Assembly: GCA_964477545.1 (NCBI GenBank)
Contig: CAYZEJ010000001.1
Span: 11 to 64,010 of the forward strand
From: an uncultured Anaerolineaceae bacterium
GTDB lineage: Bacteria; Chloroflexota; Limnocylindria; Limnocylindrales; CSP1-4
Direction: 5' to 3'
DNA length: 64,000 bases
Of this stretch, positions 28,268-49,754 are shown one piece after another (position 1 is the stretch's first letter; each line of letters begins with the position of its first letter). The notes under the pieces are model-generated. The model saw only the letters and a list, made by a program, of their open reading frames with translations, did not search any database and was not told where the DNA came from. A program made the position numbers and the translations under genes.

Positions 28268-28389
28268 GAGGAGGTCAGCTCGGCGACAGTGGCAACAACG
28301 AGTGTTCCAATCACGGGGCACCCGTGCTATGTTTCGTTGCATCGTTGGCGAGGGCGCGAGCCACTCGGACAAGGGGAGTTGGAGCGGAC

Positions 28390-30159: not shown

Positions 30160-31055
30160 ACGCACAGTCGACCGAAGTCAACGCCGACGCGGATGTCATT
30201 TCGGCACTGCGCCACAGCTACGACGAGCTGACGCGCTCGCAGAAGCGAATCGCCGAGGCGATCGTCGACGATCCCGAGTTCGTTGCCTTCGCAACCGTCG
30301 ACAAGATGGCCAGCCGGCTGGGTGTCAGCCCATCGACCGTGGTGCGCTTCACGTATCGATTAGGGCTCAACGGCTACCAGGATCTGCAGGAACGCGTTCG
30401 GTTGCTGGTCCGGTCACAGATGCGTTCGGCCGCGGGCGATGGTGATGAAGCCCAGGTTATCGCCCACCTCGGCGATACCGCCTTCGCACGATCGTTCGAG
30501 CGCGACCTGGACCATCTCCGCCGGACGATCGCTGGGCTCGACCGCGACGCGCTCGAACGTGCCGTCGAGCTGCTGGTTGCCGGCAGGCGTGTGCTGGTGA
30601 CCGCGGACGCGACGGCCCGCAGCGTTGCGTATTTCACGATGCTCGCGCTCGATCGCATGCGTGGCGCGACCGACCTTGTACGTGCCGACGGTGACAGCGT
30701 GGGCCGGCTGGTAGACATCTCACCGGAAGACGTCGTACTGGCCTTCACCTTCCCACCCTATGCCTCGAGCGTCCTTCGGATGGTCCGCTGGGCACACGAG
30801 CGGCGAGCCCGCATCATCGCCGTGACCGACTCGCCGATCTCGCCCGTCGGCCAGCTGGTGGATGTCGTGTTGCCTGCTCTGTCGTCCGGCATCGGAGCCC
30901 ACAACACGCTGGTTCCGGCGTTGGCGATTGCCAACGCACTGACTAACGCCTTCGCCGTGCACGAGCGCGCAACCGCCCTCGACCGCTACGGCACCGCTAA
31001 CCAGTTGATGGAGCAGTGGGACCACTACGTGCTGAAGTCCGGCGATGAGCGATGA
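30156..31055 (+). CDS. RpiR-family transcriptional regulator (HTH + SIS domain)
   Basis: HTH rpiR-type N-terminus and SIS domain. ATGA overlap with the TPP enzyme. Its 3' end overlaps the next gene by 11 nt. Confidence 0.75.
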   Translation: MNAQSTEVNADADVISALRHSYDELTRSQKRIAEAIVDDPEFVAFATVDKMASRLGVSPSTVVRFTYRLGLNGYQDLQERVRLLVRSQMRSAAGDGDEAQVIAHLGDTAFARSFERDLDHLRRTIAGLDRDALERAVELLVAGRRVLVTADATARSVAYFTMLALDRMRGATDLVRADGDSVGRLVDISPEDVVLAFTFPPYASSVLRMVRWAHERRARIIAVTDSPISPVGQLVDVVLPALSSGIGAHNTLVPALAIANALTNAFAVHERATALDRYGTANQLMEQWDHYVLKSGDER

Positions 31056-32277
31056 GCCAAACGCCCTCGCTGGCCTCCGCGTAATCGACGCCAGCGGTGA
31101 GCTGGCGGCGTATGCAGCACGGTTGCTGGGGGACCTGGGGGCCGAGGTTATCCGGGTGGAGCCACCCACCGGATCGCCCGTCCGCATCCGGTCGCCGCTC
31201 GTTAGCGAGCCACACGGGCGTGGCACCAGTGCCTTCGACCTGTTCGTAAATGCGGGCAAGCTCTCGGTCACGCTCGACCTCGGCCATGCCGATGGCCGGT
31301 CGCTGCTCGTGCGCCTGGCCGAGCAGGCCGACATCCTGCTCGAGACATTCGAGCCGGAGTGGGCCGACGCAGTGGGTCTCTCGCCCTCCGAGTTGCGGCG
31401 CGTCAATCCGCGCCTCATCCACGTCTCGGTCACGCCTTATGGGCGATCGTTGAGTGCCGCGGCGAACGACGACGATCTGACCATCCTGGCCGCTGGCGGA
31501 CTGCTTCACCTCGGCGGCTATCGCGATGCCGAGCCGGTCGCCGCGTATGGCGGCCAGAGTCGCTTCGCCGCATCTCTCTTTGCGACTACGGCGGCGTTGA
31601 TCGGTGTGCTCGACCGCGAGCGTACCGGTCAGGGCTGCTGGGTCGATGTCTCGGCGCAAGAGTGCGTGGCGCAGGCGCTCGAGGACTCGGTGGCTACATA
31701 CGACCTCACCGGTGAGGTGCGCGAGCGGCTGGGGTCCGAGCCACGCGAGGCGGGCAGCGGCATCTATCGCTGCGCCGACGGCTACGTGGCCATGATGGCC
31801 GGTCGGCTGGGCACCGCTAAGGCCTGGCAGTCACTCATCGATTGGCTGGTAAAGGAGGAGGTCGACGGAGCGACCGAGCTGCAGGATCCGTGGTGGTCGC
31901 AGCTGCCCAATCGGCAGAGCGACCGCGGCATCAGCCGCTTCGGCGAGATCTTCGGCCGATTTACCGCAGGTCGGCCGCGCGCCGACCTGTATGCGGAGGC
32001 GCAGCGGCGCGGCATCGCACTGTCGCCGGTCAACGACGTGGCGGCAGTACTGGCCGACGCCCAGCTCGCGGCGCGCGGGTTCTGGGTCCTGGTCGACGAT
32101 CCGCAGGCGGGCCGCACCATGACCTATCCCGGGCCGCCATACCGCCTGTCGGCGACGCCGCCCCGGGCAGCGCGGCCCGCGCCCCGCCCGGGGGAGCACA
32201 ACGTGGCCGTGCTCCGCGATCGGCTGGGTCTTACCAGCGAACAGTACGAGCAACTGCTGGAGGCGGGGGTGGTATGA
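31045..32277 (+). CDS. Family III CoA-transferase subunit (BbsE/SptA-like)
   Basis: CaiB/BaiF family. First of two adjacent CoA-transferase genes. Confidence 0.85.
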   Translation: MSDEPNALAGLRVIDASGELAAYAARLLGDLGAEVIRVEPPTGSPVRIRSPLVSEPHGRGTSAFDLFVNAGKLSVTLDLGHADGRSLLVRLAEQADILLETFEPEWADAVGLSPSELRRVNPRLIHVSVTPYGRSLSAAANDDDLTILAAGGLLHLGGYRDAEPVAAYGGQSRFAASLFATTAALIGVLDRERTGQGCWVDVSAQECVAQALEDSVATYDLTGEVRERLGSEPREAGSGIYRCADGYVAMMAGRLGTAKAWQSLIDWLVKEEVDGATELQDPWWSQLPNRQSDRGISRFGEIFGRFTAGRPRADLYAEAQRRGIALSPVNDVAAVLADAQLAARGFWVLVDDPQAGRTMTYPGPPYRLSATPPRAARPAPRPGEHNVAVLRDRLGLTSEQYEQLLEAGVV

Positions 32278-33497
32278 GCCAGCGCTCCGTCTTCCTGAGC
32301 GAGCTTCGCGTGCTCGACTTCGCGTGGGTGGGCGCCGGCGCGTTGGTGACCAAGCTCCTGGCGGATATGGGCGCCGAGGTGATCAAAGTCGAGTCGCGCG
32401 CCCGGCCGGACAACCTGCGCATGGCGCCGCCCTACCGGCCGGGCGGCGAGGGGCTTGAGGGATCGGGATACTTTGCCTCACGCAACACGAACAAGAAGAG
32501 CTTCGCTCTCGACATGCGGCAACCGGAGGCGCGCGAGATCGCCCTCGCCTTGGCCGAGCGCTGCTCGATCGTCACCAGCAATTTCCGGCCCGGCGTGATG
32601 GAGCGCTGGGGTCTCGCCTACAGCGACATTCGGGAGCGCAACCCATCGGTCATTTACCTGACGATGCCGATGCAGGGCTCTGACGGCCCCCACGCCGCCT
32701 ACACCGGCTTTGGCTCAACCATTGCCGCGCTGTCTGGCCTCGTTCACCTTTCGGGGCGTCCTGACCGTCCTCCCGTCGGCACCGGCACTCACTACCCGGA
32801 CCACGTGCCCAGCCCCGGGCATGCGCTCGTCGCACTGCTCGCCGCTCTGCGCCATCGGGAACGAAGCGGCGAGGGCCAGGCGATCGAGGTTGCCCAGTTG
32901 GAATCAACCGTCAACGTCGTTGGCCAGGCGTTCCTCGATGATGGCCAGACCGAAGGCACGCGCGACCGCAGCGGCAACCGACTTCCCGGCGCCAGCCCGC
33001 GCGGCGTTTTCCCGTGCGCAGGGCCTGAGAGCTGGGTGGCGATCGCCTGCTTGACGGAGAGCAACTGGCGCAACCTGTGCGACGTGCTGGGTCGGCGGGA
33101 ATGGGCCAATGACGGACGGTTTGCCACGCTGCTCGCCCGCAAGGCGAACGAAGACGAGCTGGAGGCCCTGCTGGCGATCGAGACGCGTGTCCAGCAACGC
33201 GCCGAGCTGGTCGCCTCGCTCCGTGCCTGCAACGTGCCGGCGTCTCCGGTGAACAGCAGCCGCGATGTGCTCGGCGACGACGCCCTCGCGGCACGGGAGT
33301 ATTGGCAGCGCGTCAGCCATCCCGTGATTGGGGAGATGGCGATTGCTCGGCCGCCGTTCCGCATCGATGACTGGTCACGGCCCGACCTTGGCCGCGCGCC
33401 GCTGCTCGGCGAACACACGCGCCAGATCGCGAGTGAGCTGTTGGCGATGGACGACGCCGCGATCGACAGGCTCATTGAAGCCGGGGTTCTGGCGTGA
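32274..33497 (+). CDS. Family III CoA-transferase subunit (BbsF/SptB-like)
   Basis: MSQRSVFLSELRVLDFAWVGAGALVTKLLADMGAEVIKVES N-terminus. ATGA overlap with the previous gene. The track ORF has an N-terminal shadow extension. Confidence 0.85.
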   Translation: MSQRSVFLSELRVLDFAWVGAGALVTKLLADMGAEVIKVESRARPDNLRMAPPYRPGGEGLEGSGYFASRNTNKKSFALDMRQPEAREIALALAERCSIVTSNFRPGVMERWGLAYSDIRERNPSVIYLTMPMQGSDGPHAAYTGFGSTIAALSGLVHLSGRPDRPPVGTGTHYPDHVPSPGHALVALLAALRHRERSGEGQAIEVAQLESTVNVVGQAFLDDGQTEGTRDRSGNRLPGASPRGVFPCAGPESWVAIACLTESNWRNLCDVLGRREWANDGRFATLLARKANEDELEALLAIETRVQQRAELVASLRACNVPASPVNSSRDVLGDDALAAREYWQRVSHPVIGEMAIARPPFRIDDWSRPDLGRAPLLGEHTRQIASELLAMDDAAIDRLIEAGVLA

Positions 33498-34276
33498 CGG
33501 CGGACGCCGGAGGCGGTCTGCTGGTCGAGCGCAACGGGCACGTTCTCTGGCTGACATTCAACCGACCTGAGCGGCGCAACGCCATCGATCGCGCCATGCG
33601 CATCGCGTTCGGCACAGCCTGCGCGGAAGCCGACTCCGACGACGAGGTGCGCGTAGTCGTGCTGACAGGAGCGGGCGAGGCATTCTGTGCTGGGACCGAT
33701 CTCAAGGAGGCGCCGCGCGCCGATCCACCGCACCCGCTGGCCGATCGCACGGAGCCGATCGCGGCACCCATCGAGCGGCTAACCAAGCCGGTCATTGCCG
33801 CCATCAATGGGCCAGCGGCGGGCGGCGGGCTGGAAGTCGCGCTGGCTGCTGACCTGCGCATCTGCTCGACAACCGCGATGTTCGCCCTGCCCGAGGTGCG
33901 CGTCGGGAGCCTGCCCGGTAGCGGCGGCACACAGCGGCTCATCGCTTCCATCGCCCCCGCGGTCGCGTGGAAGATGCTGCTGACCGGTGATCCGATTGAC
34001 GCCGAAGAGGCGCTGCGCGTGGGCCTGGTCAGCGACGTGGTCCCGCGCGAAAAGCTGCCTGCGCTGGCCCAGGCACTCGCCGAGCGCGTGGCCGCCAATG
34101 CGCCACTGTCGGTGCGTGCGGCCAAGGTCGCCGGTCGGGCCGCAACGGAGCATCCCATAGCCAGCGGGCTGGCGCTCGAGCGGATGCTGTGGGCGCTGCT
34201 CGCGACCACTGAGGACCGCACGGAGGGCCGCGCCGCGTTTCGAGAGCGGCGCAAGCCCGACTACAAGGGACGGTAG
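33494..34276 (+). CDS. Enoyl-CoA hydratase/isomerase (crotonase)
   Basis: Crotonase fold with catalytic region (CAGTDLKE). Confidence 0.9.
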   Translation: MTADAGGGLLVERNGHVLWLTFNRPERRNAIDRAMRIAFGTACAEADSDDEVRVVVLTGAGEAFCAGTDLKEAPRADPPHPLADRTEPIAAPIERLTKPVIAAINGPAAGGGLEVALAADLRICSTTAMFALPEVRVGSLPGSGGTQRLIASIAPAVAWKMLLTGDPIDAEEALRVGLVSDVVPREKLPALAQALAERVAANAPLSVRAAKVAGRAATEHPIASGLALERMLWALLATTEDRTEGRAAFRERRKPDYKGR

Positions 34277-36165: not shown

Positions 36166-37344
36166 CTACGCTGCGGGAGTCGCCGCCGAGGCTTCGCCGT
36201 CGACGAAGGCCAGCTTCTGGTAGCGCTGACGAGTCCGGTTGGTGTCGAACCACCGCATGAACGCGATGAGCATTGCCTTGGCGACGTCCTGGTTGCGGTC
36301 GCCGGTGGGCTGTCCGTAGAGGTCGGTGCGCATCAGGCCGCGCAGGACCGCGACCTCCGAGTCCGACAACTCCATGTCGATCGGGCGCCGCCTCGGGAAG
36401 GGGCGGAACTCGGGCTTGTAGGACGGGTCCGGGCGCAGCTCGCGCTCCGCCAGAATCTCCTTGACTTTGAAGTCGGCCCACGTCTTCTGCATCTTGAGCC
36501 CGCCCCATTGCTGGTTGACGAGCTCGACCAGCTCGCTCGTGTGCTCGGTCTTATCGTGGACGGCGATCAGAACGGGCTGCGGGTCGAAGTTATTGATCGG
36601 GTGAACCTCGGCCGGGCAGGACACCGGGACGGCAAGCATGTCCATCGTCGCCACCAGGTCGACGTAGTCACCCTTTACCGACCGGCCGTGGCCGAAGTTA
36701 CGCCGGCCGGTCGCGTCCATGATCGACTTCATCCAGAAGTTGTACGAGGTGTGGACGTCGTCAGCGGTCAGCCGGTACTCGCGGATCGCCTCGGTAAACG
36801 CGTCCTCGCAGCTGGCGTGATCGACGAGCCCGTACTCCTTCTCGTACAGCACGCCGTTACAGCGGTTGCCGGCGTAGTACTGGTCGCAGGACTCGGAGGC
36901 GTCGCGGATGACGAAGATCGGCCGGCCGTGCGGTGAGTTGGTGAATACGACCGTGCCCGGGCCCGTCACGAATCCGCGCTGCCGGTTGAAGCCGCAGTCG
37001 AGGTACTCCTTGTAGTCGTGCAGGTTGTAGGCGTTGAAATCGATGCACTGGCCGCCCACCAGTTGCGACATGCGCAGCACTTCACCCTTGTATACGGGGA
37101 TCGCCTTGCCTTCCCCGGGCTGGAGGACGATGTCGTACCGTTGCGGTCCGTACGCGGGGCGCTTGGCCTCGACCTGCGTCCACGGCGCCGGGTCGTCAGT
37201 CCCGCCGCCAGCCAGGATGTACGCGGCATGGTCGAGGGCGACCGCGCGTAGCACGTCAACCCTTTCTTTGCCGTAGGTGCCTGTGGCGACGACCTCATCG
37301 AGCAGCTGCAGCTGTGTTTCCAAAAATGGGACGCTTACTTTCAT
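36166..37344 (-). CDS. DUF1989 domain protein (urea-carboxylase-associated family fold) with N- and C-terminal extensions
   Basis: Conserved blocks VGGQCIDFNAYNLHDY and GDYVDLVATMDMLAVPVSCP recall DUF1989. 392 aa is longer than typical family members. Confidence 0.6.
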   Translation of the reverse strand: MKVSVPFLETQLQLLDEVVATGTYGKERVDVLRAVALDHAAYILAGGGTDDPAPWTQVEAKRPAYGPQRYDIVLQPGEGKAIPVYKGEVLRMSQLVGGQCIDFNAYNLHDYKEYLDCGFNRQRGFVTGPGTVVFTNSPHGRPIFVIRDASESCDQYYAGNRCNGVLYEKEYGLVDHASCEDAFTEAIREYRLTADDVHTSYNFWMKSIMDATGRRNFGHGRSVKGDYVDLVATMDMLAVPVSCPAEVHPINNFDPQPVLIAVHDKTEHTSELVELVNQQWGGLKMQKTWADFKVKEILAERELRPDPSYKPEFRPFPRRRPIDMELSDSEVAVLRGLMRTDLYGQPTGDRNQDVAKAMLIAFMRWFDTNRTRQRYQKLAFVDGEASAATPAA

Positions 37345-37413
37345 CGGTACTCCCTCGCATTACTTGACGTGACCACTGGGGGCACGCGATCGGGTGGCCC
37401 GCGGACCACCGCC

Positions 37414-37734
37414 CTACTCCGCTACTCGCGCGCGATCTCGCAACGGCATGAAGCCACGATGGACTGCGATCGTGCGTGGCGCGACTGGGCCACGCACGAG
37501 CTGGTCCTCGGTGGCGAGCCGCTCGACCAGGGCGTCGAGCTGGGCAGCGAAGGAGGCGGCGTCCGAGGTGACGACGACGGCGGCATCGGCGGGGACGTCG
37601 GAGGCCGGATGCAGATCCAGGCGTGCGGCGTAGCCGGCACGCTCAATGGTGCGGCGCGCGCGGCGGACGGCCTGGAACAGCGGCCCGGGGAGCGCGCCGT
37701 CGGGGTAGGTGACGACAATGTGAAGCACGCTCAC
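37414..37734 (-). CDS. Hypothetical 106-aa protein, translationally coupled to the XDH-family FAD subunit
   Basis: GTGA start/stop overlap with the upstream gene. No recognisable family. Confidence 0.5.
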   Translation of the reverse strand: MSVLHIVVTYPDGALPGPLFQAVRRARRTIERAGYAARLDLHPASDVPADAAVVVTSDAASFAAQLDALVERLATEDQLVRGPVAPRTIAVHRGFMPLRDRARVAE

Positions 37735-38735
37735 TGTTGGGCCAAATCCAGCAGCGTCCGTTCCAACACCGTGGCCATGACCTCGAGCTTCCAGGCGTTT
37801 CGCGTCATCGGCCGAGCCGCGGCGCGCAACGCTGCGACGGCGTCGGGCACTGAGTCCCCCACTCGACGGCCAGCGAGCGCCTGCTCAACCACCACCGCGC
37901 GCCAAGGCACTGGCGCGACGGCGCCGAGGACAACGCGTCCCTCATGCCAGACCCCGTCCGAGATCGAGGCCAGTGCCGCAACGGACGCGATGGCGAAGTC
38001 CCACGTCGGCAGGCCCTTCTCATTGACCTTGACCCAGGTCTGCCGGGCGCCGGCCGCAACAGGCGGCACCGTTACCTCGACCAGCAACTCGTCTGGCGCC
38101 AGTGCCGTCTCCGCCACCAGATTCTCGGCCGGGCTGACGAAGTAGTCGTCGAACGAGATGACCCGCTCGCCATTCGGCGACGCCACCCGGGCAGAACCGC
38201 CAAGAGCCATCAGCGCCGACCCCAGATCGGAGGGATGGACGATAAAGCAGATGTTGCCCTCGAGGATCGCGTTGTAGCGGTTGTCGCCCTTGACCGCGTA
38301 GCAGATCGCGCCGCCCTTCTTGATGCAGTCGAAATCCTTGTTGCGGAAGAACCAGCAGCGCGGCCGCTGGTGGAGGTTGCCGCCGAGCGTGCCGACGTTG
38401 CGGATCTCCGGCGTCGCTACCAGCCCAGCCGCCGCCGCCAGCAGCGGCCATGAACGGCGCACCTCGGCCGACTCGGCGATGTCGGCGAGCGTCGTCGCCG
38501 AGCCGATCACCAGCTCGCCCCGATCACCAACCCGGATGTCGCGCAGCTCGCGTAGCCGCGCAACGTCGATGAGCTCGGTGGGGTAGGGCATCGCCGAGCC
38601 GATCAGCTGGTCGCGCATCACGCCCGCCACGAGGTCGGTGCCCCCGCCCAGGGGCCGCCCCTCCAGCCCGGCCTCGGCGAGCATCGCCACGGCCTCATCC
38701 ACGGTGGCCGGCTCGTGCAGCCGGAACGACCTCAC
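37731..38735 (-). CDS. Xanthine dehydrogenase / CO dehydrogenase family FAD-binding (medium) subunit
   Basis: PCMH-type FAD-binding N-terminus (RPLGGGTDLV) and CO-dehydrogenase flavoprotein C-terminal domain. Confidence 0.85.
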   Translation of the reverse strand: MRSFRLHEPATVDEAVAMLAEAGLEGRPLGGGTDLVAGVMRDQLIGSAMPYPTELIDVARLRELRDIRVGDRGELVIGSATTLADIAESAEVRRSWPLLAAAAGLVATPEIRNVGTLGGNLHQRPRCWFFRNKDFDCIKKGGAICYAVKGDNRYNAILEGNICFIVHPSDLGSALMALGGSARVASPNGERVISFDDYFVSPAENLVAETALAPDELLVEVTVPPVAAGARQTWVKVNEKGLPTWDFAIASVAALASISDGVWHEGRVVLGAVAPVPWRAVVVEQALAGRRVGDSVPDAVAALRAAARPMTRNAWKLEVMATVLERTLLDLAQQ

Positions 38736-41731
38736 TCAGCCGCTCCAAGTGCGGCCAGCACCCGCATCCTCGAAAGCGGCAGGTCCGTGAGCCAGACGCC
38801 TGTCGCGTTGTGGAAGGCATTGGCGAGTACGGGCCCAACCGGCGGCGTCGAGGCCTGCCCGATGGCCAGCGCCCCGTACGGCCCGTAGTCCTGCGGCACT
38901 TCGACGAAGTCGACGATGATCGGCGGCACCTCGCCGAAGGCCATCGGCTTGTAGTCGAGGATGTTGGCGTTGACGGGCAGCCCGGTGCGCTCGTCGATCA
39001 ACAGCTCCTCGTACAGCGCGCCGCCGAGGCCCATCCCGACTCCGCCTTCAACCTGTTGCTCGAGCATGAGCCGGTTGAGCACCTTGCCCACATCGTGGAC
39101 GGCGACGTAACGACGGATGTCAATCTTGCCCATGTGGGTGTCGACCTCGATCTCGACCGCGTGCGCTCCGGTGGCAACCGATTCGCTGGTCAACTGCCGG
39201 CGGCGGTCGGAGGCACCGACTATCGGCTCGGCGAGCCCCGCCACGACCTCCCGAACCGCCACTCGGTGTCCGTTGCCGGGCACCGACACCCAGCCGTCGC
39301 GGATCTCCAGCGACTCTGGCTCGATCGAGGCGCCGTTTGACAGTATCGGCGCGGCCAGGCGGCGAACCTCGTCGCGCACCTGCTCTGCGGCGTCGACGAC
39401 GGCCCAGCCGCCGACATTCATCTGCAGTGATGAGTTGGATGGTCCGGTGTTGGTATTGAATGCGGTGTCGACGCCGGGCAGGATGCTCACTTCGTCGAGC
39501 GGGATGCCCGTCGTCTGCGCCGCGAGCATGGCCAGCAGCGTGCGCTGGCCGGCGCCCACCTCGGTGCTGCCCGAGCGTACCTCGAGCGTGCCGTCGGGGT
39601 GGAGCAGCACCTGGCCGGTCGAGGGCGGCGGCAGGCCGTCCTTGGAAGTACCGCCCTGCTTGCCGCCGCCACGGTCGATCGCCGAGACGATGGCCATGCC
39701 GTGGAACACGCCTGGACGCACCTCGCGCGCCGCCGGTGGATGCCACTTCTCGCGCCAATCGATCAGCTCGGCCGCGCGCTCGAGCGACTGGCGGTGGCCG
39801 CCGACCCGACCAAAAGGCAGGCCCGGCTTCTCACCTGTCAGCTCGTCGAAGAGGGAGCCGACCTCGTTGAGATTCTGCAGCCGGAAGTCGAGCGGGTCGG
39901 CTCCGATCGCGTTGGCGGCACGCTCCATGGCTGTCTCGAGCGCGAACAGGCCGTAGTGGCGGCCCACGCCGCGCATGGGCCCGGCGCGGAAGTTGTTGGT
40001 CCAGACCTCGGTTCCGGCGTAACGCTGGTTGTCGTACGTGTACAGGATCTGGAACGGGTACCAGCCGCCCAGCACGCCGACGCCGGTCAGGCCGCGAGCC
40101 GCCGCGGCGCTGGGCGGCAGCCCGGCGTTCGTACCGCCGTCGTAGAGCACATCGACCGACAGGCCTGTGAGCTTGCCGTCGCGAGTGAGGCCCATCTTGA
40201 CGTTCGTCCTCGTCCGGCCGCGATGGGCCGACGTCAGGAAGCTTTCTTCGCGGCTGAGCATCGCTCGCACCGGCCGCTCAACGATCCTGGCCATGACCGC
40301 CGGGAGTGCCAGCTCCTCGACCAGCTGATCGGCCGAGCCGTACGACGAGCCCATGTAGCCGGTCTGGATGACGCGGACCTGCTCCTCGGGCAGCGACAGC
40401 CACTTGGCCAGCTCGCGCCGCACGTCGAAGGTGCGGTGTGTCGTTTGCCACGTCGTCAGGGTGTCTGCCTCCCAGGAGTACAGGCCCGTGCGCAGCTCGA
40501 GCGGCAGGTGCTGCTGGTAGGGAGTGGTCGAAGTCGACTCGACCAGCACCTCTGCCTCGGCCAGTGCGGTCTCCGGGTCGCCGATGACGACCGGGCCGAG
40601 CACGTTGCGTATGGTGCCGGGGTAGATGTTGTCCCACTGCTGTTCGGCGCCGGTGGCCTTCTCGAAATCGAGCGCCGGCTCGAGAGCCTCGTACTCGACC
40701 TCGATCTTTGACAGCGCGTCCTCGGCGAGATGCTCAGACTCCGCCGCCACGACCGCGACGGGCATGCCGACGTGAATCACCTCCTTGTTGAGCAGCCTGC
40801 GCTCGGGCGGTCCCTCGATGACGATCGAGCGGTATGGCTCGGGCAAATTGAAGGCGTGCAGGACGCGCACGACGCCGGGCATCCGCTCCGCGGTCGCGGA
40901 GTCCACGCGCAGCACGCGCGCCCGCGGGTAGGGCGAGCGAAGGGTGCGCACGAAGACCTGGTTGGGCAGCGACATCAGGCTGACGAAGTCGGCCTCGTCG
41001 GTGATCTGGGCACGGCCGTGGATGCGCGGCACGCGCGTGCCTAGCACCTCCGACGTGTGCGGCATCAATGTCTCGCGCGGCGCCGGCGCGGACGTCGGAT
41101 CGCGCATCTCCACCGCTGCCCGCTGAACGGCGCGCACGATGCGCTCCTGCTCACCGCAGCGGCACAGGATGCCCGACAGCGCGTCCTTGATCTCGGACTC
41201 GGACGGGTCCGGGTTGCGCTCGAGGAGTGCGAGCGAGGTCATCAAAAAGCCCTTGGTGCAGATGCCGCACTGGAACGCACCGTCTTCCCAGAATGTGCGC
41301 TGAAGCGGGTGCAGGCCGGATATGCCGGGACCGCTCGCCAGCCCGGCGGCGGTGCGCACCTCGCAGCCGTCAAGACGTGCAGTGAGCAAGGCACAGCTGT
41401 TGACGGAGCGACCGTCGACGATCACGTTGCACGCGCCGCACTGCGCCCGGTCACAGCCGAGGTTGGCGCCACGCTCGCCGAGACGCAGCGCGAGCGTCTC
41501 CCACAGGCTCTCGCGTGGCTCGACTTGAAGAGCGTGGACGACGCCGTCAATCGTCAAAGAAGCAGAGTGCCAGGACGACGCTGAGTCGTTGGCGGCTCGT
41601 GCTGCTGTGGTGCGCGGACCAGTGGGACGCTTCAAGGCGCCTCGCAACATTGGATCGAAATCTCGGCGGGCGCTACGCGTGACGAAGGGGACCTCGGCAA
41701 CGGATCCGCCACTATGGCATTCTCGGCGCAA
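38732..41731 (-). CDS. Fused [2Fe-2S] small subunit + molybdopterin-binding large subunit of a xanthine dehydrogenase / aldehyde oxidase family enzyme
   Basis: N-terminal ferredoxin-like and 4-helix FeS motifs (CDRAQCGACNV; CGICTKG...CRCG) followed by about 850 aa of aldehyde oxidase/XDH Moco domains. True start may be the ATG at 41650. Confidence 0.85.
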   Translation of the reverse strand: MRRECHSGGSVAEVPFVTRSARRDFDPMLRGALKRPTGPRTTAARAANDSASSWHSASLTIDGVVHALQVEPRESLWETLALRLGERGANLGCDRAQCGACNVIVDGRSVNSCALLTARLDGCEVRTAAGLASGPGISGLHPLQRTFWEDGAFQCGICTKGFLMTSLALLERNPDPSESEIKDALSGILCRCGEQERIVRAVQRAAVEMRDPTSAPAPRETLMPHTSEVLGTRVPRIHGRAQITDEADFVSLMSLPNQVFVRTLRSPYPRARVLRVDSATAERMPGVVRVLHAFNLPEPYRSIVIEGPPERRLLNKEVIHVGMPVAVVAAESEHLAEDALSKIEVEYEALEPALDFEKATGAEQQWDNIYPGTIRNVLGPVVIGDPETALAEAEVLVESTSTTPYQQHLPLELRTGLYSWEADTLTTWQTTHRTFDVRRELAKWLSLPEEQVRVIQTGYMGSSYGSADQLVEELALPAVMARIVERPVRAMLSREESFLTSAHRGRTRTNVKMGLTRDGKLTGLSVDVLYDGGTNAGLPPSAAAARGLTGVGVLGGWYPFQILYTYDNQRYAGTEVWTNNFRAGPMRGVGRHYGLFALETAMERAANAIGADPLDFRLQNLNEVGSLFDELTGEKPGLPFGRVGGHRQSLERAAELIDWREKWHPPAAREVRPGVFHGMAIVSAIDRGGGKQGGTSKDGLPPPSTGQVLLHPDGTLEVRSGSTEVGAGQRTLLAMLAAQTTGIPLDEVSILPGVDTAFNTNTGPSNSSLQMNVGGWAVVDAAEQVRDEVRRLAAPILSNGASIEPESLEIRDGWVSVPGNGHRVAVREVVAGLAEPIVGASDRRRQLTSESVATGAHAVEIEVDTHMGKIDIRRYVAVHDVGKVLNRLMLEQQVEGGVGMGLGGALYEELLIDERTGLPVNANILDYKPMAFGEVPPIIVDFVEVPQDYGPYGALAIGQASTPPVGPVLANAFHNATGVWLTDLPLSRMRVLAALGAAE

Positions 41732-41741
41732 AAGTTGTTGC
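41728..41741. promoter_or_regulatory. Inverted-repeat motif GCAAAAGTTGTTGC (site 6, one mismatch)
   Basis: Lies in the divergent region between the molybdoenzyme operon and ridA. Confidence 0.4.
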
Positions 41742-41800
41742 AGTCAACCACCATGCTCGGCGAGAACTTCCAAAAGCAGCGAGCCACAAGGGGAGTCGTG

Positions 41801-42184: not shown

Positions 42185-42373
42185 ATCGCCCGGCGTCGTC
42201 GATTTCGCGCAGCACCAAATTTTGCGTCAGAGCCCTGTGTCTGCCAAAAACCGTTGCAGAGGCGCGTAGTATCTGCGCAGCCGAGGCGGCCCCGCTCCGG
42301 CGCAGGCTGCCATTCCGCGGCACGTCGCTGGGCTCGGTCCACGCGGCCAGCAGCACAAACGAGGAGGAGCCAG

Positions 42374-43657
42374 ATGCATCAGCGGTTCCGTTTCCGCGTC
42401 TCGGCCTTGGCGATCGCCGCGCTCGTCGTGGCGGCCTGCCAGGCTGGCGCACCAACGCCAGGCGCGACGAGCACGCCCGCCGATGCCACCGCCTCGCCCC
42501 CGGCAGCAACGGCGACAGCGCCGACTACCGGCGAGCCAATTCGCATCGGTGCGGCCATGGCGCTGACCGGTGACTTCTCGCCCGACACCGAGCTCGTTCA
42601 CGACGGCTACGTTTTCGCCGTGAACCGCATCAACGAGATGGGTGGCATCGAGGTCGGTGGCCAGATGCGGCCTGTCGAACTCGTGGTACGTGACGACGGC
42701 TCCGACCGTGAGGTTTCTGCTCGCTTGCTCGAGCAGTTGATCGCCGAGGACGAGGTTGATCTGCTGCTTGCCCCCTGGGGCTCGGGCAACACGAACGCCG
42801 TCGCGCCCATCAATGAGCGCTACGGACGCCCGATGATCGCTCCACTGGCCGCCTCAGATTCGATTTGGGAGCAGGGCTACGAGTACCTGTTTGGGATGCT
42901 GCCGCTGGGAAGCGACAACGAGCGCCCCATGGTCCAGATGGCGCAGGAGCTTGGCGCCGAACGCATCGCCCTGATTACGACAGACGATCTGTTCCCGGGA
43001 CTTGCCCATGAGGGCGCGGTCGATGAGGCGGAGACACTCGGCCTCGAGGTCGTCGTGAATGAGATCTATCCCCCCGGCACTGTTGATTTGGGGGCGCTCA
43101 TCACGCGCCTTGAGCAGGCCGAGCCCGACTTCGTCATCGCTCCCGTAGATGTTGCCGATGCGATCGTCCTCATCCGCCAGCTGAAGGAACGCGACTTCCG
43201 TCCGCCGGGGCTCGCGCTCTCGGGAGCCACGTTCGTGCCCGACTTCCTGGACAACGTCGGCAACGACGCGGAAGGCCTGTTCGGGATCGTTCACTGGTTC
43301 CCAACGCTGCCCTGGAGCGACGACATCTTCGGGACGGCCGAGCAGTACGCGCAGGACTTCGAAGCAGAGATGGGATATCCGCCAACCCACGACAACGCTG
43401 CGGCCTCAGGTGCCGTGGAGGTGCTCAAGCTGGCAGTCGAATCGGCCGGCAGCCTGGAGCAGGATGCCGTTCGCGACGCCCTCCGTCAGATCGACCTCGA
43501 AACGTTCTTTGGTCCAGTCAACTTTGACGACACGACCGGGCGAAACATTGGGCTCGAGTACCCAGTTCAAATCCAGGGCATGGCACCGGTGATCGTGTAC
43601 CCGGATGACGCGGCCGGTGCCGAGCCCATCTATCCCATCACCGAATGGAGCGAATAG
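42374..43657 (+). CDS. LivK/UrtA-type ABC substrate-binding lipoprotein
   Basis: Lipobox VAAC with Ala/Thr/Pro linker. Periplasmic-binding-protein type I. Confidence 0.8.
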   Translation: MHQRFRFRVSALAIAALVVAACQAGAPTPGATSTPADATASPPAATATAPTTGEPIRIGAAMALTGDFSPDTELVHDGYVFAVNRINEMGGIEVGGQMRPVELVVRDDGSDREVSARLLEQLIAEDEVDLLLAPWGSGNTNAVAPINERYGRPMIAPLAASDSIWEQGYEYLFGMLPLGSDNERPMVQMAQELGAERIALITTDDLFPGLAHEGAVDEAETLGLEVVVNEIYPPGTVDLGALITRLEQAEPDFVIAPVDVADAIVLIRQLKERDFRPPGLALSGATFVPDFLDNVGNDAEGLFGIVHWFPTLPWSDDIFGTAEQYAQDFEAEMGYPPTHDNAAASGAVEVLKLAVESAGSLEQDAVRDALRQIDLETFFGPVNFDDTTGRNIGLEYPVQIQGMAPVIVYPDDAAGAEPIYPITEWSE

Positions 43658-43704
43658 TCCTCGATCTTCCCGCCAAGCTCAGGAGCTGAGCACAGAACCC
43701 GCCC

Positions 43705-44568
43705 GTGAGCCAGGCACTCATCAATGCCCTGCTCACGGGCGGGCTTTACGCATCGCTGGGCATCGGGCTGTCGCTCGTCTACGGCGTCACCAAGGTCATC
43801 AATGCCGCGCACGGCGCCTACATCGTCCTCGGTGCGTTTCTTGCTTGGGCGGCGTGGAGCGCGTGGGGCATCGATCCATTTGCATCGATCCCGTTCTTGC
43901 TGGTCGTCGGTTTCGTGCTCGGCTATCTCGTCCAGCGCCTGCTGGTCAATGCGGTGGTCAAGAGATCGACGCTAATGACGGTTGCCATGACGTTCGGCAT
44001 CGACCTGGTCATCGTTACCGCCATACTCGTCGTCTGGGGCGCCGATTTGCGCATCGTCGATGTCGACTATGCCGCCGCTGGGTTCTCCGTCCTGGATGCG
44101 CGCGTCTCATGGGTACGGCTGGGCATCTTCGGCGTCGCCTTGGGGATGGCCGTGGCCCTAGAGGGTGTCATCCGGAGAACCAGGGTCGGTGCTCAGATTC
44201 GCGCGGTATCGCAGGATCGGCCCGCGGCCGAGCTCCTGGGCATCGACGTCGGCCACACATACGGAGTCGCCCACGGACTGGCGGCGGGTGTCGCGTGTGG
44301 CGCGGGGGCGATGGTCTCGATGATCACGCCGCTCCAGCCATTCCTGGGCGTTTCGTTGCTGCTTATCGCCTTCGCAGTGGTCGTACTGGCTGGCTTCGGG
44401 CCGATTGCACCGGTCATCGTCGCCGGCGTCCTGCTCGCGCTGTCCGAGCAGGTGGCCGGGCTGTACCTCGGCACGCAGTACCAGCGCCTGGCTATCTTCG
44501 TCGTGTACCTGGCCGTCGCGACGCTGCGTCCGCATGGCCTGTTCGGTCGCCGTTTCTATGCCCACTGA
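43705..44568 (+). CDS. LivH-type ABC permease
   Basis: Branched-chain amino acid transport permease family. Confidence 0.85.
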   Translation: MSQALINALLTGGLYASLGIGLSLVYGVTKVINAAHGAYIVLGAFLAWAAWSAWGIDPFASIPFLLVVGFVLGYLVQRLLVNAVVKRSTLMTVAMTFGIDLVIVTAILVVWGADLRIVDVDYAAAGFSVLDARVSWVRLGIFGVALGMAVALEGVIRRTRVGAQIRAVSQDRPAAELLGIDVGHTYGVAHGLAAGVACGAGAMVSMITPLQPFLGVSLLLIAFAVVVLAGFGPIAPVIVAGVLLALSEQVAGLYLGTQYQRLAIFVVYLAVATLRPHGLFGRRFYAH

Positions 44569-44571
44569 CGG

Positions 44572-45570
44572 GTGGAACTCGTGATCGCGGTCAAGGAGCG
44601 GCGGGCCGCCTTACGCCTGCTGATCGTCGTTGCGCTGATCGTGCTGCTGACGGCTCTGCCGTTCGGTCTGAACAACTTCTGGCTGCGCGTCATGACGACC
44701 GGCCTGATGTTCGCCGGCCTCGGACTCGCGATGCAGATCATGATCGGGTTGACCGGCTGGCCGGCCCTCGGCAATGTCGTGTTCTTTGGCGTAGGCGCTT
44801 ACGGCGCGGCACTCGTCAACCTGCGTCTGGACGCGCCCGTATATCTCGCCATTCCGTTCGGAGGGCTGGTTGCGGCATTGCTGGCGATCATCGCGGCGCG
44901 AGCGATGCTCTCGCTGCGCGGCTCGTACTTCCTGATGGCAACGGTGGCGCTCAACTTTGCGATGCTCGAGCTGGTACTGACTGCGCGCGGCGTGACGAAC
45001 GGGCCGCAAGGTTTGACTCTTGCCCCAGTTGTCTCCGGCTCGCCGCATTTCGTCTACACGTTCTTCTACATGCTCTTCCTCGCCGTGTTGGCGGGGGCCG
45101 CGCTGGTTCTGCTGCTGATGCGGCGCAGCAGGCTCGGCTACGGCCTTCTGGCAATAAAGGGAAATGAGGACGCCGCCCTGATGCTTGGCGTACCGACCTT
45201 CCGGTACAAAGCGATCGCCTGGGCCGCAAGCGCGGCCGTGACCGGCGTCATCGGCGGCGTCTACGCGTTCTGGATCGGATACATCGATCCCGAGTCCGTA
45301 TTCGACCTGCTCATCTCGCTGGCGGTCATCCTGATGGTCCTCCTGGGTGGCAGGTTGCTCATCTTCGGCCCGATTTTGGGCGCTCTCGCCTACGAATTGG
45401 TCGACGTCGTCGCCTGGCGTGAGTTCAATGAGCTTCGCCTGGCAGTGCTCGGCATCACCCTGATTGCCATCGTGCGCTTCCTGCCGGGCGGGCTGCCAGA
45501 GCTGTGGGATCACGTCGTCCGCCTTCGCCACCGTCGCCGCGCACGAGCCGAGGCGCGCCGTGCTGCTTGA
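44572..45570 (+). CDS. LivM-type ABC permease
   Basis: Branched-chain amino acid transport permease family. Confidence 0.85.
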   Translation: MELVIAVKERRAALRLLIVVALIVLLTALPFGLNNFWLRVMTTGLMFAGLGLAMQIMIGLTGWPALGNVVFFGVGAYGAALVNLRLDAPVYLAIPFGGLVAALLAIIAARAMLSLRGSYFLMATVALNFAMLELVLTARGVTNGPQGLTLAPVVSGSPHFVYTFFYMLFLAVLAGAALVLLLMRRSRLGYGLLAIKGNEDAALMLGVPTFRYKAIAWAASAAVTGVIGGVYAFWIGYIDPESVFDLLISLAVILMVLLGGRLLIFGPILGALAYELVDVVAWREFNELRLAVLGITLIAIVRFLPGGLPELWDHVVRLRHRRRARAEARRAA

Positions 45571-46288
45571 GCTCGACAATGTCTCGCGACACTTCGGCGG
45601 CGTGCGCGCCGTGGACGGAGTCAGCGGCGGCGTGGAACACGGCAAGATCCTGGGCCTGATCGGGCCGAACGGCTCGGGCAAGACGACGCTACTGTCGATG
45701 ATCTCTGCAGCGCTGGCCCCCAGCAGTGGCGAGATCCGGCTTGACGGCCGCTCGATGCGCGGGTGGTCGCCGCGCGACGCTGCCAAAGGGAGCGTCGCGC
45801 GCGCCTTCCAGGTACCCCAACACGCGGCCGACCTGACCGTTCTCGAAAACGTGATGCTGGGAGCGATGTTCGGCAGCCGGTGGGTGTCGCAGCGTGAAGC
45901 GGCGGAGGAAGCGCGCCACAACCTGGCCCAAGTCGGTCTTAGCTGGCTTGCCGACAAACATCCATATGAGGCATCCCTGGGCGAGCGCCGCGGCATCGAG
46001 CTTGCCCGGCTGCTGACGATGCGGCCGACGCTGGCGCTCATGGACGAGGTGATGGGTGGCCTGTCGGCAAAGAACGTCGAGATGACCGAGCAGATCATCC
46101 TGCGCCTCCGCGATGAGGGAGTCACGCTCATCGTCGTTGAGCACGTGGCAGGCGTGATAGCGCGGCTTGCGGATGAGATCTGCGTTCTACACGAGGGCCG
46201 CGTTCTGCGCTGGGGACCCCCAGCCGAGGTGCTCGCCGACCGTCAGGTCATCGACGTCTACCTTGGTCGCGACGTCGCGCATGACTGA
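45560..46288 (+). CDS. LivG-type ABC ATPase
   Basis: Walker A GPNGSGKTT. GTG start at 45560 overlaps the permease stop. Confidence 0.85.
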   Translation: MLLELDNVSRHFGGVRAVDGVSGGVEHGKILGLIGPNGSGKTTLLSMISAALAPSSGEIRLDGRSMRGWSPRDAAKGSVARAFQVPQHAADLTVLENVMLGAMFGSRWVSQREAAEEARHNLAQVGLSWLADKHPYEASLGERRGIELARLLTMRPTLALMDEVMGGLSAKNVEMTEQIILRLRDEGVTLIVVEHVAGVIARLADEICVLHEGRVLRWGPPAEVLADRQVIDVYLGRDVAHD

Positions 46289-47021
46289 CGGCCTGCTCCA
46301 GATGCGCAGCGTCTCAGCTGGCTACGAAGCAGACCGGCCCAGCTGGGATCGACCGGTCATCAGCGAATTCGAACTGGACGTCGCTCTGGGCGAGCTGGTC
46401 ACGCTACTGGGTGCCAATGGCTCGGGCAAGTCTTGTGTTCTTCTCGCCACGGCCGGTCTGATCCGTCTGGCTGGTGGCTCGATCAGGTTCAACGGAAGCG
46501 ACCTGACGCGCTCCTCGGCCACAGACAGGGCGCGCAGGGGCATCAGCCTCGTGCCCGAAGGTCGCCGCCTTTTCCCCGGGATGACCGTTCGCGAGAATCT
46601 GGTCCTGGCCGCTGTATCACTGCATCGACCCGTTGACGAGGGGATCGAGACCGTTCTCGATCTGTTCCCTCAGCTACGCAATCTGCTCGACAGCGTCTCC
46701 GGGTCGCTGTCAGGGGGTGAGCAGCAGATGTGCGCAATCGGCCGTGGCTTGATGGCTCGCCCACGGCTCTTGCTTATCGACGAGCTTTCACTTGGACTGG
46801 CTCCGGTCATGGTCGAACGACTCGTGGATGCCCTCAAGCGAATTCACAGTGAGATGGGGATCACGGTCCTATTTGTCGAGCAGGCGGCAGATCTTGCCAT
46901 CGACATCGCCGACCGCGTGGTAGTCCTCTCGCTGGGCCGGAAGGTGTTCGATGGCACTTCGGCTGAGGCGGCCGCATCGCGCGACCTCATCGAACGCGCC
47001 TACCTCGGCCTACCCGTCTGA
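46281..47021 (+). CDS. LivF-type ABC ATPase
   Basis: Walker A GANGSGKS. ATG at 46281 overlaps the LivG stop. Confidence 0.85.
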   Translation: MTDGLLQMRSVSAGYEADRPSWDRPVISEFELDVALGELVTLLGANGSGKSCVLLATAGLIRLAGGSIRFNGSDLTRSSATDRARRGISLVPEGRRLFPGMTVRENLVLAAVSLHRPVDEGIETVLDLFPQLRNLLDSVSGSLSGGEQQMCAIGRGLMARPRLLLIDELSLGLAPVMVERLVDALKRIHSEMGITVLFVEQAADLAIDIADRVVVLSLGRKVFDGTSAEAAASRDLIERAYLGLPV

Positions 47022-48770: not shown

Positions 48771-49754
48771 GTGCTGCGCATGACGATCGCGACTGGTCGG
48801 TACGACCGGACCGCCGCCCTCCACGACGGTCGTGTCCGACCCGAGGGCATTGACGCCACCTGGCTGGCACTCAACGTGGAGCAGACCTTCTGGCGCATGT
48901 TCCGCCACCAGGAGTTCGACGCGTCCGAGCTATCGCTGTCGGGAACGCTCGTCCGATTGGGCCGCGGTGTCACCGACTTCGTGCCGATCCCGGTCTTCCT
49001 GTCGCGCACGTTCCGCCACGAATGCATCTACGTCAACACGCGCGCTGGGCTGAAGGGGCCCGAGGATCTGGCGGGGCGCCGGGTCGGCTTGCCCGAGTTC
49101 CAGCTCACCGCCTGCGTCTGGGCACGCGGCCTCCTCGAGGACGAGTATGGGGTGCGCCAAGAGGACATCACGTGGATACAGGGCGGCCTCGAGCAGCCCG
49201 GCCGCCGACCCCAGGAGCCGGTGTCGCCACCTGGCGTGACGATCGAGGACGCGCCTGCCGGGGCAACGCTGTCCGCGATGCTTGCCGCGGGAGAGATCGA
49301 CGCACTGATAAGCCCGCGCCGGCCTTCAGTGTTCGGCGATGGAACCGGGCGTGTCGAGCGTTTGATCCCCAATGTCTGGGAGGCCAGCCGGGCGTATTAC
49401 GAGCGCACCAGGATCTTTCCGATCATGCACCTCGTCGCTATCCGGCGTCCGATCGTCGAGGCAAACCCCTGGGTCCCCCAGACGCTGTCGAACGCCTTCC
49501 TCGCGGCCAAGCGGCTGGCGGACGCTGACCTGAGAGACACAACAGCCTTGCCCATCGGGCTGCCGTTCCTGGTCCAGCACGCCGAGGAAACCGCCGAGTT
49601 GATGGGCGACGACTTCTGGCCGTACGGAGTCGAAGCCAATCGAGCGACGCTCGAGGCGTTCGTGCGCTACTCGCACCGTCAGGGCCTGATCCCGGAACTT
49701 CCGGACATCGACTCGCTCTTCCCGGCTTCAACACGCGAGGTCTCCCGGATCTGA
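48771..49754 (+). CDS. PhtD-like protein (paralog 2)
   Basis: MLRMTIATGRYDRTAALHDGRVRPEG N-terminus. About 65-70% identical to paralog 1. Confidence 0.65.
   Translation: MLRMTIATGRYDRTAALHDGRVRPEGIDATWLALNVEQTFWRMFRHQEFDASELSLSGTLVRLGRGVTDFVPIPVFLSRTFRHECIYVNTRAGLKGPEDLAGRRVGLPEFQLTACVWARGLLEDEYGVRQEDITWIQGGLEQPGRRPQEPVSPPGVTIEDAPAGATLSAMLAAGEIDALISPRRPSVFGDGTGRVERLIPNVWEASRAYYERTRIFPIMHLVAIRRPIVEANPWVPQTLSNAFLAAKRLADADLRDTTALPIGLPFLVQHAEETAELMGDDFWPYGVEANRATLEAFVRYSHRQGLIPELPDIDSLFPASTREVSRI

Follow-up and report, generated by a model that had tools for sequence, protein, structure and literature searches.

The molybdoenzyme operon considered here lies in a 64,000-nucleotide (nt) stretch of contig CAYZEJ010000001.1 from an uncultured Anaerolineaceae bacterium (hereafter the window) and has several described relatives within the xanthine oxidase family. 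In Desulfovibrio gigas MOP (1sij/1vlb) an iron-sulfur (FeS) part precedes a molybdenum cofactor (Moco) part in a single polypeptide, and no flavin adenine dinucleotide (FAD) subunit is known. E. coli PaoABC and the Methylobacillus aldehyde oxidase (5g5g, 5y6q) keep the FeS and Moco subunits separate and have a four-cysteine insertion in the FAD subunit. PaoA carries a twin-arginine translocation (Tat) signal and PaoABC is periplasmic; PaoB is reported to bind a [4Fe-4S] cluster. 4-Hydroxybenzoyl-CoA reductase (4-HBCR) of Thauera aromatica (HcrCAB; 1rm6) consists of three separate subunits, has a CoA thioester as its substrate and contains a [4Fe-4S] loop in its FAD subunit, an additional cluster which is named in the title of Unciuleac et al. 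(2004). Finally, in the YgfN(XdhD)/YgfM group (TIGR03313, TIGR03312) the Mo- and Fe-S-binding parts form one subunit, and the FAD subunit has its own gene. We know of no [4Fe-4S] loop or small partner protein in that group.

The operon of the window consists of four open reading frames (ORFs) arranged head to tail on the minus strand and coding for a fused FeS/Moco subunit, an FAD subunit, a 106-aa protein and a DUF1989 protein (Table 1). This layout had been described in an earlier note made from the DNA letters, and both the positions and the translations proved correct. Judged by their sequences, the three translationally coupled genes encode a molybdo-iron-sulfur flavoprotein of the xanthine oxidase family with a non-canonical active site, and its chemistry is probably one not yet described for this family. 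As a whole, the best explanation of the locus appears to be such an enzyme acting on a (hetero)aromatic acid or its CoA derivative, assisted by an accessory small protein and supplemented by the DUF1989 protein as an add-on; we give it a probability of roughly 0.6.

The earlier note took the fusion of the FeS and Moco parts to be unusual. This is not supported, as D. gigas MOP aligns with the fused subunit from end to end (residues 32-969 against MOP 6-906 of 907) and NCBIfam contains a fused YgfN-type model. The subunit fusion is thus already catalogued, and the interest lies in a lost catalytic glutamate and in an undescribed partner protein. The features which are genuinely unusual, namely the replacement of this Glu by Gln, the replacement of a Mo-proximal Gln by His and the [4Fe-4S] loop of the FAD subunit, had been overlooked.

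Fused iron-sulfur/molybdenum subunit and its active site

The fused ORF matches the Pfam domains Fer2, Fer2_2, Ald_Xan_dh_C, MoCoBD_1 and MoCoBD_2. The Moco-binding domains PF01315, PF02738 and PF20256 have E-values of 6e-21, 2e-52 and 1.5e-55, respectively, and all exceed their gathering scores. All eight FeS cysteines (C66, C71, C74, C86, C128, C131, C163 and C165; residue numbers of this subunit count from the ATG at 41650) are invariant in 24 orthologues, which share more than 200 invariant columns at identities down to 58%. There is no twin-arginine (RR) motif at the N-terminus, which points to a cytoplasmic enzyme.

The structurally solved relatives are about equidistant from the fused subunit: 4-HBCR alpha (221 bits, E = 2e-64), D. 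gigas MOP (214 bits, 4e-62) and PaoC (205 bits, 2e-59), followed by 6-hydroxypseudooxynicotine dehydrogenase (187 bits) and QorL (185 bits). NCBIfam equivalog cut-offs are all missed at least two-fold, with scores of 386 against 780 for XdhA, 325 against 995 for 4-HBCR alpha, 312 against 1100 for the MOP type, 265 against 1180 for PaoC, 147 against 991 for CoxL and 271 against 1102 for the YgfN-type TIGR03313. The remaining 4-HBCR equivalogs are missed as well (152 against 405 for beta, 111 against 258 for gamma), and the FAD subunit matches its YgfM counterpart at E = 3e-4. These comparisons place the predicted enzyme within the xanthine oxidase family and outside every characterised clade; grouping of its Moco subunit with a well-characterised xanthine or CO dehydrogenase clade, considered in the earlier note, was not observed.

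Members of this family have a conserved catalytic Glu residue next to Mo-OH (bovine Glu1261, D. gigas Glu869; PMC4726530). In pairwise alignments with 1sij, 5g5g_C and 1rm6_A, the fused subunit has Gln932 (AIGQASTPP) at this position, opposite D. gigas Glu869, PaoC Glu692 and the matching Glu of 4-HBCR. The replacement is common to the clade: IGQA is found in 59 of 59 fused homologues among the matches listed (56-96% identity). The next clade (~44% identity, unfused) has GIGEPP and the following one (~33%, fused) has GVGEI, so both keep Glu. A second substitution affects the Mo-proximal Gln of the (S/T)Q motif, which is present in PaoC, 5y6q_C, QorL and 4-HBCR and is replaced here by His405. 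The Moco-contact motif GGGFG, retained by PaoC, is replaced by GSSYGSAD. Both His405 and GSSYG were confirmed against four or five solved enzymes. Other Moco-contact motifs are also changed, GQG to GAGQ and the S-R motif to SSLQ. Asp441, located in GSSYGSAD, is invariant within the Gln-bearing clade. Presumably it matches the position of bovine Glu802 (GGGF798-G-G-K-E802), which we treat as a lead only.

With Glu replaced by Gln932 and the Mo-proximal Gln by His405, classical base-assisted hydroxylation cannot run unchanged. Nothing relevant was found in the literature on a characterised member of the xanthine oxidase family lacking this Glu.

The four-cysteine FAD subunit and its 106-aa partner

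The FAD subunit consists of the FAD_binding_5 (PF00941) and CO_deh_flav_C (PF03450) domains. The FAD_binding_5 match covers 222 residues compared with 168 profile positions. All four cysteines of the protein (C127, C137, C145 and C163) are located in the extra loop; they correspond one for one to cysteines of PaoB and of 5y6q_B, the medium subunit of the Methylobacillus aldehyde oxidase. HcrB has cysteines opposite three of the four, the spacing being closer to PaoB/5y6q_B. The same proteins (5y6q_B, PaoB and HcrB) are the best solved relatives of the whole subunit, and 4-HBCR beta is its best NCBIfam match. The loop cysteines are invariant in ten orthologues and are also found in a sister clade described below. 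By alignment, the loop should hold a [4Fe-4S] cluster. Electrons would then pass from Mo through two [2Fe-2S] clusters to FAD, and from there via the [4Fe-4S] cluster to an external partner, as in PaoABC and 4-HBCR.

Both junctions between the three genes are GTGA stop/start overlaps: GAGTGAGG between the Moco and FAD genes and CAGTGAGC between the FAD gene and the 106-aa ORF. This ORF codes for a real protein, as several observations agree. Its GC content at codon positions (GC3 0.82, GC2 0.51) is like that of the neighbouring genes. Comparison with the orthologue in locus L001 shows 17, 12 and 45 nucleotide differences at codon positions 1, 2 and 3, and 33 synonymous against 26 non-synonymous codon changes. 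A word-indexed search returned 13 homologues at 36-94% identity, and a profile search over 1.84 billion cluster representatives found 61 family members at E ≤ 1e-3, 26 of them at E ≤ 1e-10; to judge from these searches, the family is real but rare. In every fused-enzyme locus extending far enough (L001, L002-5, L006, L007/L015, L008, L011, L012, L013 and L014) a homologue begins at the stop of the FAD gene, and an (A/G)TGA overlap with this stop is retained in all nine other loci examined. The translational coupling proposed earlier is therefore a conserved arrangement. We also considered the ORF as a frameshifted end of the FAD gene and rejected this, since overlap and frame are retained in ten loci.

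The proposal that the 106-aa protein belongs to no described family also stands: it has no hit in Pfam or NCBIfam, and no family could be assigned by a Pfam scan of 58 relatives at E ≤ 1, in which a single relative gave a weak PTS_IIB match (E = 0.01) and none matched the XdhC_CoxI or XdhC_C domains. The AlphaFold2 model (14 sequences, mean pLDDT 81) has a beta-alpha-beta-beta-alpha core followed by a low-confidence tail. A Foldseek search of this model against the Protein Data Bank (PDB) gave nothing significant, with flavodoxins at E = 0.25 and the mannitol phosphotransferase system (PTS) IIB protein 1vrv at TM-score 0.53. The protein has no cysteine at all, which makes it neither a PTS-type phospho-carrier nor an XdhC-like sulfur carrier.

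The most conserved residues (R87, A90, H92, R93, G94, R101, A102 and R103, all invariant) are located in the basic tail, which is predicted to be unstructured alone. Distant family members also have the (H/Y)RG motif; the ERARVAE end is confined to the fused clade. One short relative, P0281 (90 aa), looks like a chimera: its N-terminal 38 residues match the UbiX/Flavoprotein family (Pfam E = 5e-9), and its C-terminal half corresponds to the conserved tail portion of the 106-aa protein. Either recombination produced it, or it is an artefact of assembly or gene calling.

The small-protein family is not confined to the Gln variant. In the sister clade, represented by L018 and L019 from Chloroflexota metagenome-assembled genomes (MAGs), the FeS subunit is separate and bears a twin-arginine signal (RRDFLIGAGAG), the catalytic Glu is kept, the FAD subunit has the same four-Cys loop, and cytochrome b and a 4Fe-4S protein are encoded nearby. 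There, the second gene downstream of the FAD gene, following an inositol-monophosphatase gene, codes for a small-protein homologue of 190 aa (E = 8e-16 against the clade-1 profile); this homologue is not translationally coupled and has no signal peptide. The distant relative P0289 has a neighbourhood similar to that of the sister clade. Thus, the family travels with the whole [4Fe-4S]-bearing branch. The idea that the tail exists to compensate for the lost Glu was rejected, as the Glu-retaining sister clade has a homologue too. In addition, the usual (F/M)RG(F/H)G of the family is replaced in the sister clade (L018 6197-12758, and L019) by a 'YRCV' loop; we take this loop to resemble the active-site Cys loop of CO dehydrogenase.

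Gene neighbourhood and possible functions

Neighbour conservation was followed using gene calls and blastp against the window proteins. The full partner module of the window, coding for a thiamine pyrophosphate (TPP) enzyme, an RpiR/SIS regulator, two family-III CoA-transferases and an enoyl-CoA hydratase, adjoins the enzyme genes in L001, L006 and L012. L014 has the RpiR, both CoA-transferase and the hydratase genes, with no TPP gene seen. The orthologues in these four loci are 48-64% identical to the window proteins. In L007, L013 and L014 the enzyme genes are immediately preceded by genes for a Liv-type ABC importer and a luciferase-like (F420/LLM-type) oxidoreductase. A UbiD decarboxylase gene is also located upstream in L007 and L013, and four UbiD paralogues surround the enzyme genes in L008. 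The window itself has three UbiD genes (one of them broken) and genes for a UbiX-like flavoprotein, TctC/TctA, an acyl-CoA dehydrogenase, a third CoA-transferase, a CitE/HpcH-like lyase and aldehyde dehydrogenases.

By similarity, the UbiD paralogues come nearest to subunits of hydroxyarylic-acid decarboxylase and of phenylphosphate carboxylase. NCBIfam assigns no substrate to the TPP enzyme, CoA-transferases, hydratase or UbiD proteins, all of which score below the equivalog cut-offs; the exception is the generic UbiD subfamily model TIGR00148, which was reached. Conservation of the CoA-transferases, hydratase, TPP enzyme and UbiD suggests that (hetero)aromatic acids are handled as CoA thioesters. 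A parallel is the furoate route, which employs a UbiD/UbiX decarboxylase, a Mo-dependent furoyl-CoA dehydrogenase and a crotonase-type hydrolase; we use it as a lead only. This analogy draws in part on PMC8091172. A literature search returned nothing relevant on a molybdoenzyme/UbiD pathway of such kind.

Nearly all members of the fused Gln-bearing clade stem from soil-type metagenomes. Scanning one genome per species (185,579 species) with the clade-motif pattern has found only four loci, all in MAGs: one in Limnocylindrales (80% identity), two in a single Solirubrobacteraceae MAG (71-72%) and one in Acidimicrobiaceae (67%). In L008 a second, canonical three-subunit enzyme of the same family is encoded together with CoxG (14054-18411, minus strand) about 2 kb from the Gln-bearing operon, so the two types coexist there and neither replaces the other.

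Four other explanations have to be weighed. The least probable by far is that the Gln-bearing protein is a catalytically inactive paralogue, retained as a structural or regulatory relic of a molybdoenzyme. The loss of the catalytic Glu and the divergence of several Moco-contact motifs would fit it; however, the strong constraint on the fused subunit, with its invariant columns and complete set of FeS ligands, makes a dead paralogue hard to accept, the variant motifs are themselves invariant, a complete and conserved electron-transfer chain is encoded, and the genes reside in catabolic clusters across three lineages. An unlikely but more substantial alternative is a 4-HBCR-like reductive dehydroxylase of a phenolic acyl-CoA, in which low-potential electrons enter via the [4Fe-4S] cluster. 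4-HBCR provides the best solved match of the Moco part and the best NCBIfam match of the FAD subunit, the FAD loop and the conserved CoA-transferases fit such an enzyme, as does the resemblance of the UbiD proteins to decarboxylases of hydroxyarylic acids and to phenylphosphate carboxylase subunits, and the loss of a general base would suit a non-hydroxylating direction. On the other hand, the 4-HBCR scores are far under the equivalog cut-offs, the Cys spacing is of the PaoB/5y6q rather than the HcrB type, 4-HBCR keeps both Glu and Gln, and no gene for a ferredoxin or another low-potential donor adjoins the operon in the loci seen. Moreover, the lineages carrying the enzyme are mostly regarded as aerobic soil bacteria.

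The earlier note suggested the oxidation of an N-heterocycle or an amide-bearing compound followed by enamine/imine handling. Spelled out, a free N-heterocyclic or amide-bearing compound would be hydroxylated, after which the DUF1989 protein and RidA would open the ring or deaminate an imine or enamine. Such a scheme is rather doubtful. It is favoured by the divergent ridA upstream, by a downstream DUF1989 protein with intact metal ligands, by two ornithine-cyclodeaminase/mu-crystallin genes in the same island, by the closest DUF1989 homologues, which again adjoin enzymes of the molybdenum hydroxylase family, and by an Amdase-family gene beside the operon in L002-L005 (maleate isomerases of pyridine pathways are usually assigned to the Amdase family). 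Against it, the DUF1989 gene is present in only 3 of about 12 loci and RidA is annotated in the window only, among the called-gene neighbourhoods; the conserved partners are CoA-transferases, enoyl-CoA hydratase, TPP enzyme and UbiD decarboxylases; and aldehyde oxidoreductases are at least as close to the enzyme as the characterised N-heterocycle hydroxylases of solved structure (QorL, nicotinate dehydrogenase, 7dqx). The scheme as a whole leans on RidA and the DUF1989 protein; an N-heterocyclic acid may still be the substrate.

A serious minority possibility concerns the 106-aa protein, which could be a transient maturation or assembly factor replacing XdhC/PaoD and not a subunit of the mature enzyme. 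XdhC-type chaperones are usually co-transcribed with their enzymes and share a conserved Cys, and paoD lies in the pao operon (PMC2997495), which has no small protein of the 106-aa family. The 106-aa gene occupies the operon position held by xdhC and paoD, and no XdhC-type Pfam match was found in the scanned window ORFs or in five annotated neighbourhoods, the rest of the genome being outside this scope; in the Tat-bearing sister clade the homologue is uncoupled and signal-less, as expected for a cytoplasmic helper. The lack of XdhC similarity and of any Cys speaks against this role, and the (A/G)TGA coupling in all ten loci suggests equimolar synthesis.

In the explanation which we prefer, the cytoplasmic enzyme would use another acid or base in place of Glu, namely His405, Asp441 or a carboxylate of the substrate; alternatively, it may work reductively. 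Given the conserved neighbours, among them UbiX and the Liv-type importer, the substrate would most likely be a carboxylated (hetero)aromatic acid, free or as its CoA thioester, the ring of which could be hydroxylated or dehydroxylated. The 106-aa protein would most likely be a stoichiometric accessory docking via its conserved His-Arg-Gly/Arg-rich tail; it could be a fourth subunit or could serve in maturation, taking the place of the missing XdhC-type chaperone. A putative Zn-type DUF1989 enzyme, whose characterised relatives cleave C-N bonds, would be a lineage-specific addition downstream, and together with RidA it would suit a nitrogen-containing variant of the substrate.

Several observations weigh against this explanation. 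Since 4-HBCR, the one reductive member of the family, keeps its Glu, Gln alone is no sign of a reductase. The Moco-contact motifs are diverged (GSSYG, GAGQ, SSLQ), and Moco binding is deduced from domain conservation. Fold matches of the 106-aa protein are below significance and its homologue accompanies the Glu-retaining sister clade as well. The sparse occurrence of the DUF1989 and RidA genes, mentioned above, counts here too.

The glutamate beside Mo has been treated as a constant of the family mechanism, and here a whole clade under purifying selection replaces it. As the readable cofactor ligands are kept (eight [2Fe-2S] cysteines, the four-Cys loop and the FAD domains), the clade constitutes a natural test of the need for this Glu. 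It may be a sign that uncultured Actinomycetota and Chloroflexota of soils carry out new Mo chemistry on aromatic acids, and the 106-aa protein is a candidate new component, subunit or maturation factor, for the [4Fe-4S]-bearing branch. One can go further and speculate that the Gln-bearing clade and its obligate small partner form a mechanistically new branch of the xanthine oxidase family, which transforms the ring of a (hetero)aroyl-CoA or acid without a Glu base, by means of His405/Asp441 or of the partner tail placed in the active site or at the electron-transfer interface, the small protein being a new type of fourth subunit for [4Fe-4S]-containing members. We regard this extended proposal as improbable in its entirety.

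The DUF1989 protein and other features of the window

Two activities are known for DUF1989 proteins: trimethylamine N-oxide (TMAO) demethylation by Tdm (PMC12560246) and carboxyguanidine deimination (CgdAB). In the 392-aa protein of the window, Pfam recognises DUF1989 (PF09347) at residues 73-237 only, with 98.9 bits against a gathering score of 27. Foldseek matches the core to 3di4 (E = 8e-16); the core also matches the TMAO demethylase 9q59. The Tdm site comprises a Zn triad and residues implicated in Fe binding (PMC12560246). D102, C162, H176, C179 and C243 align with Tdm D198, C263, H276, C279 and C343 once the 22-residue offset between chain and published numbering is taken into account. 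These five residues are invariant in 50 homologues, so by alignment the protein looks like an active metalloenzyme. NCBIfam scores for the DUF1989 proteins associated with urea or guanidine carboxylases (UAAP1/2, CgdAB) are below the cut-offs (74 against 285 and 55 against 206). Unlike Tdm, the protein has no GcvT domain, and unlike CgdAB it has neither a second DUF1989 partner nor a carboxylase among the window ORFs scanned; these include no urea or guanidine carboxylase, the absence of the former having been pointed out before.

The protein had been called longer than typical members. It is indeed of a long form, but this form is a populous subfamily of about 90 clusters covering at least 90% of the query at 39-94% identity. 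The AlphaFold2 model (50 sequences, pLDDT 88) shows beta-alpha-alpha modules at residues 2-44 and 319-370; pLDDT is about 97 for the N-terminal one. An hhalign comparison shows the N- and C-terminal ends to be homologous (probability 96.8%, E = 3e-10). When their profile was compared with the PDB, ParD and CopG/Arc/MetJ antitoxins made up six of the nine best matches, all weak (E = 0.02-0.9). Pfam RHH_1 matches only 1 of 38 end segments, so that support for a ribbon-helix-helix reading comes from the predicted structure, the internal repeat and the weak ParD matches. We tentatively read the ends as a putative duplicated ribbon-helix-helix-like module; the two copies might pair within the chain. 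The solved DUF1989 members lack both modules. The long form is thus a candidate enzyme-regulator hybrid in a domain family with few known activities.

In L011 (81% identity) and L021 (62%) the DUF1989 gene comes after the gene for the small protein. In L020 (67%) it is located between a Liv-type ATPase gene, whose product is 82% identical to that of the window, and a gene for a canonical 293-aa FAD subunit. More distant homologues (53% identity or less) are found in other nitrogen-compound contexts (amidases, Amdase, RidA, Rieske oxygenase). Linkage of DUF1989 to the molybdoenzyme operon is therefore restricted to a subclade of closest relatives.

The longest ORF of the fused gene (38732-41731, 999 aa) starts with TTG at 41731, which falls within a sigma70-like promoter match. 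The ATG at 41650 gives a protein of 972 aa, in agreement with the lengths of homologues (936-986 aa). The promoter match is located in the ~150-bp divergent region common to the fused gene and ridA; a promoter-consensus scan found 2 sites compared with 0.5 expected in shuffled sequences. Divergent orientation of ridA and of the Liv-type importer upstream of the operon, as stated in the earlier note, was confirmed. The longest ridA ORF begins at 41714, which is 87 nt ahead of the start at 41801 preceded by a ribosome binding site (RBS).

Table 1. Coordinates of the operon, its notable sites and adjacent genes in the window
Feature	Position	Strand	Basis or remark
Sigma70-like promoter match TTGACT-17-GAGAAT	41719..41747	-	Upstream of fused gene; consensus match only
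Fused 2x[2Fe-2S]+Moco subunit gene	38732..41650	-	972 aa from ATG at 41650; Pfam
His405 codon at the Mo-proximal Gln position	40436..40438	-	Gln in PaoC, 5y6q_C, QorL, 4-HBCR
GSSYGSAD replacing the GGGFG(G/S/Q/A)(K/R)x Moco-contact motif	40328..40351	-	Alignment
Gln932 codon at the family catalytic-Glu position	38855..38857	-	Pairwise alignments; codon checked
FAD-binding subunit gene, 334 aa	37731..38735	-	Pfam; start overlaps fused-gene stop (GTGA)
Insertion loop with C127, C137, C145, C163, predicted [4Fe-4S] site of PaoB/5y6q_B type	38247..38357	-	Alignment
106-aa accessory protein gene	37414..37734	-	GTGA overlap with FAD-gene stop
Conserved basic C-terminal tail of the 106-aa protein (VAPRTIAVHRGFMPLRDRARVAE)	37417..37485	-	pLDDT 50-63; predicted unstructured alone
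Long-form DUF1989 protein gene, 392 aa	36166..37344	-	Own RBS GAGGGAG, 69 nt after 106-aa gene
N-terminal ribbon-helix-helix-like module, residues 1-45 (predicted)	37210..37344	-	AlphaFold2: beta 2-8, helix 9-21, helix 28-44
DUF1989 catalytic core	36559..37128	-	D102, C162, H176, C179, C243 compared with Tdm
C-terminal ribbon-helix-helix-like module, residues 316-372 (predicted)	36229..36399	-	AlphaFold2 model, hhalign
ridA-family gene, 127 aa	41801..42184	+	Divergent from operon; RBS AAGGGGAG
Liv-type ABC importer (binding protein, two permeases, two ATPases)	42254..47021	+	Divergent, upstream of operon
Partner module: TPP enzyme, RpiR/SIS regulator, two family-III CoA-transferases, enoyl-CoA hydratase	28324..34276	+	blastp synteny

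The catabolic island seems to span the stretch from just after the housekeeping genes pth and mfd (4866-9233) up to the window's end. Within the partner module, the longest ORFs of the TPP enzyme (28324-30159) and RpiR (30111-31055) overlap by 49 nt on the plus strand, and the true start of the regulator is probably located further downstream. A UbiX-like flavin prenyltransferase is encoded at 9778-10401 (minus strand), and the intact UbiD paralogues at 15148-16683 (minus) and 56955-58619 (plus). A rearrangement scar was found at 50831-52238 (plus), where residues 1-160 of an aldehyde dehydrogenase are fused to UbiD residues 128-234 and, after a frame change, UbiD residues 276-473 follow; the intact orthologues are far apart in L006. 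Three minus-strand genes (14139-15122, 58910-60013 and 61118-62476) code for two ornithine-cyclodeaminase/mu-crystallin proteins and one PrpD/MmgE-family protein, a further, unexplained sign that nitrogen-containing or branched acids are handled by the island.

Three more genes, 18049-19035, 48771-49754 and 52246-53235 (plus), code for proteins of about 328 aa without a Pfam family, one of which has a weak Phosphonate-bd match (E = 5e-4). Each of them adjoins a gene for a luciferase-like oxidoreductase or UbiD, and their orthologues in L006 and L008 adjoin the molybdoenzyme cluster.

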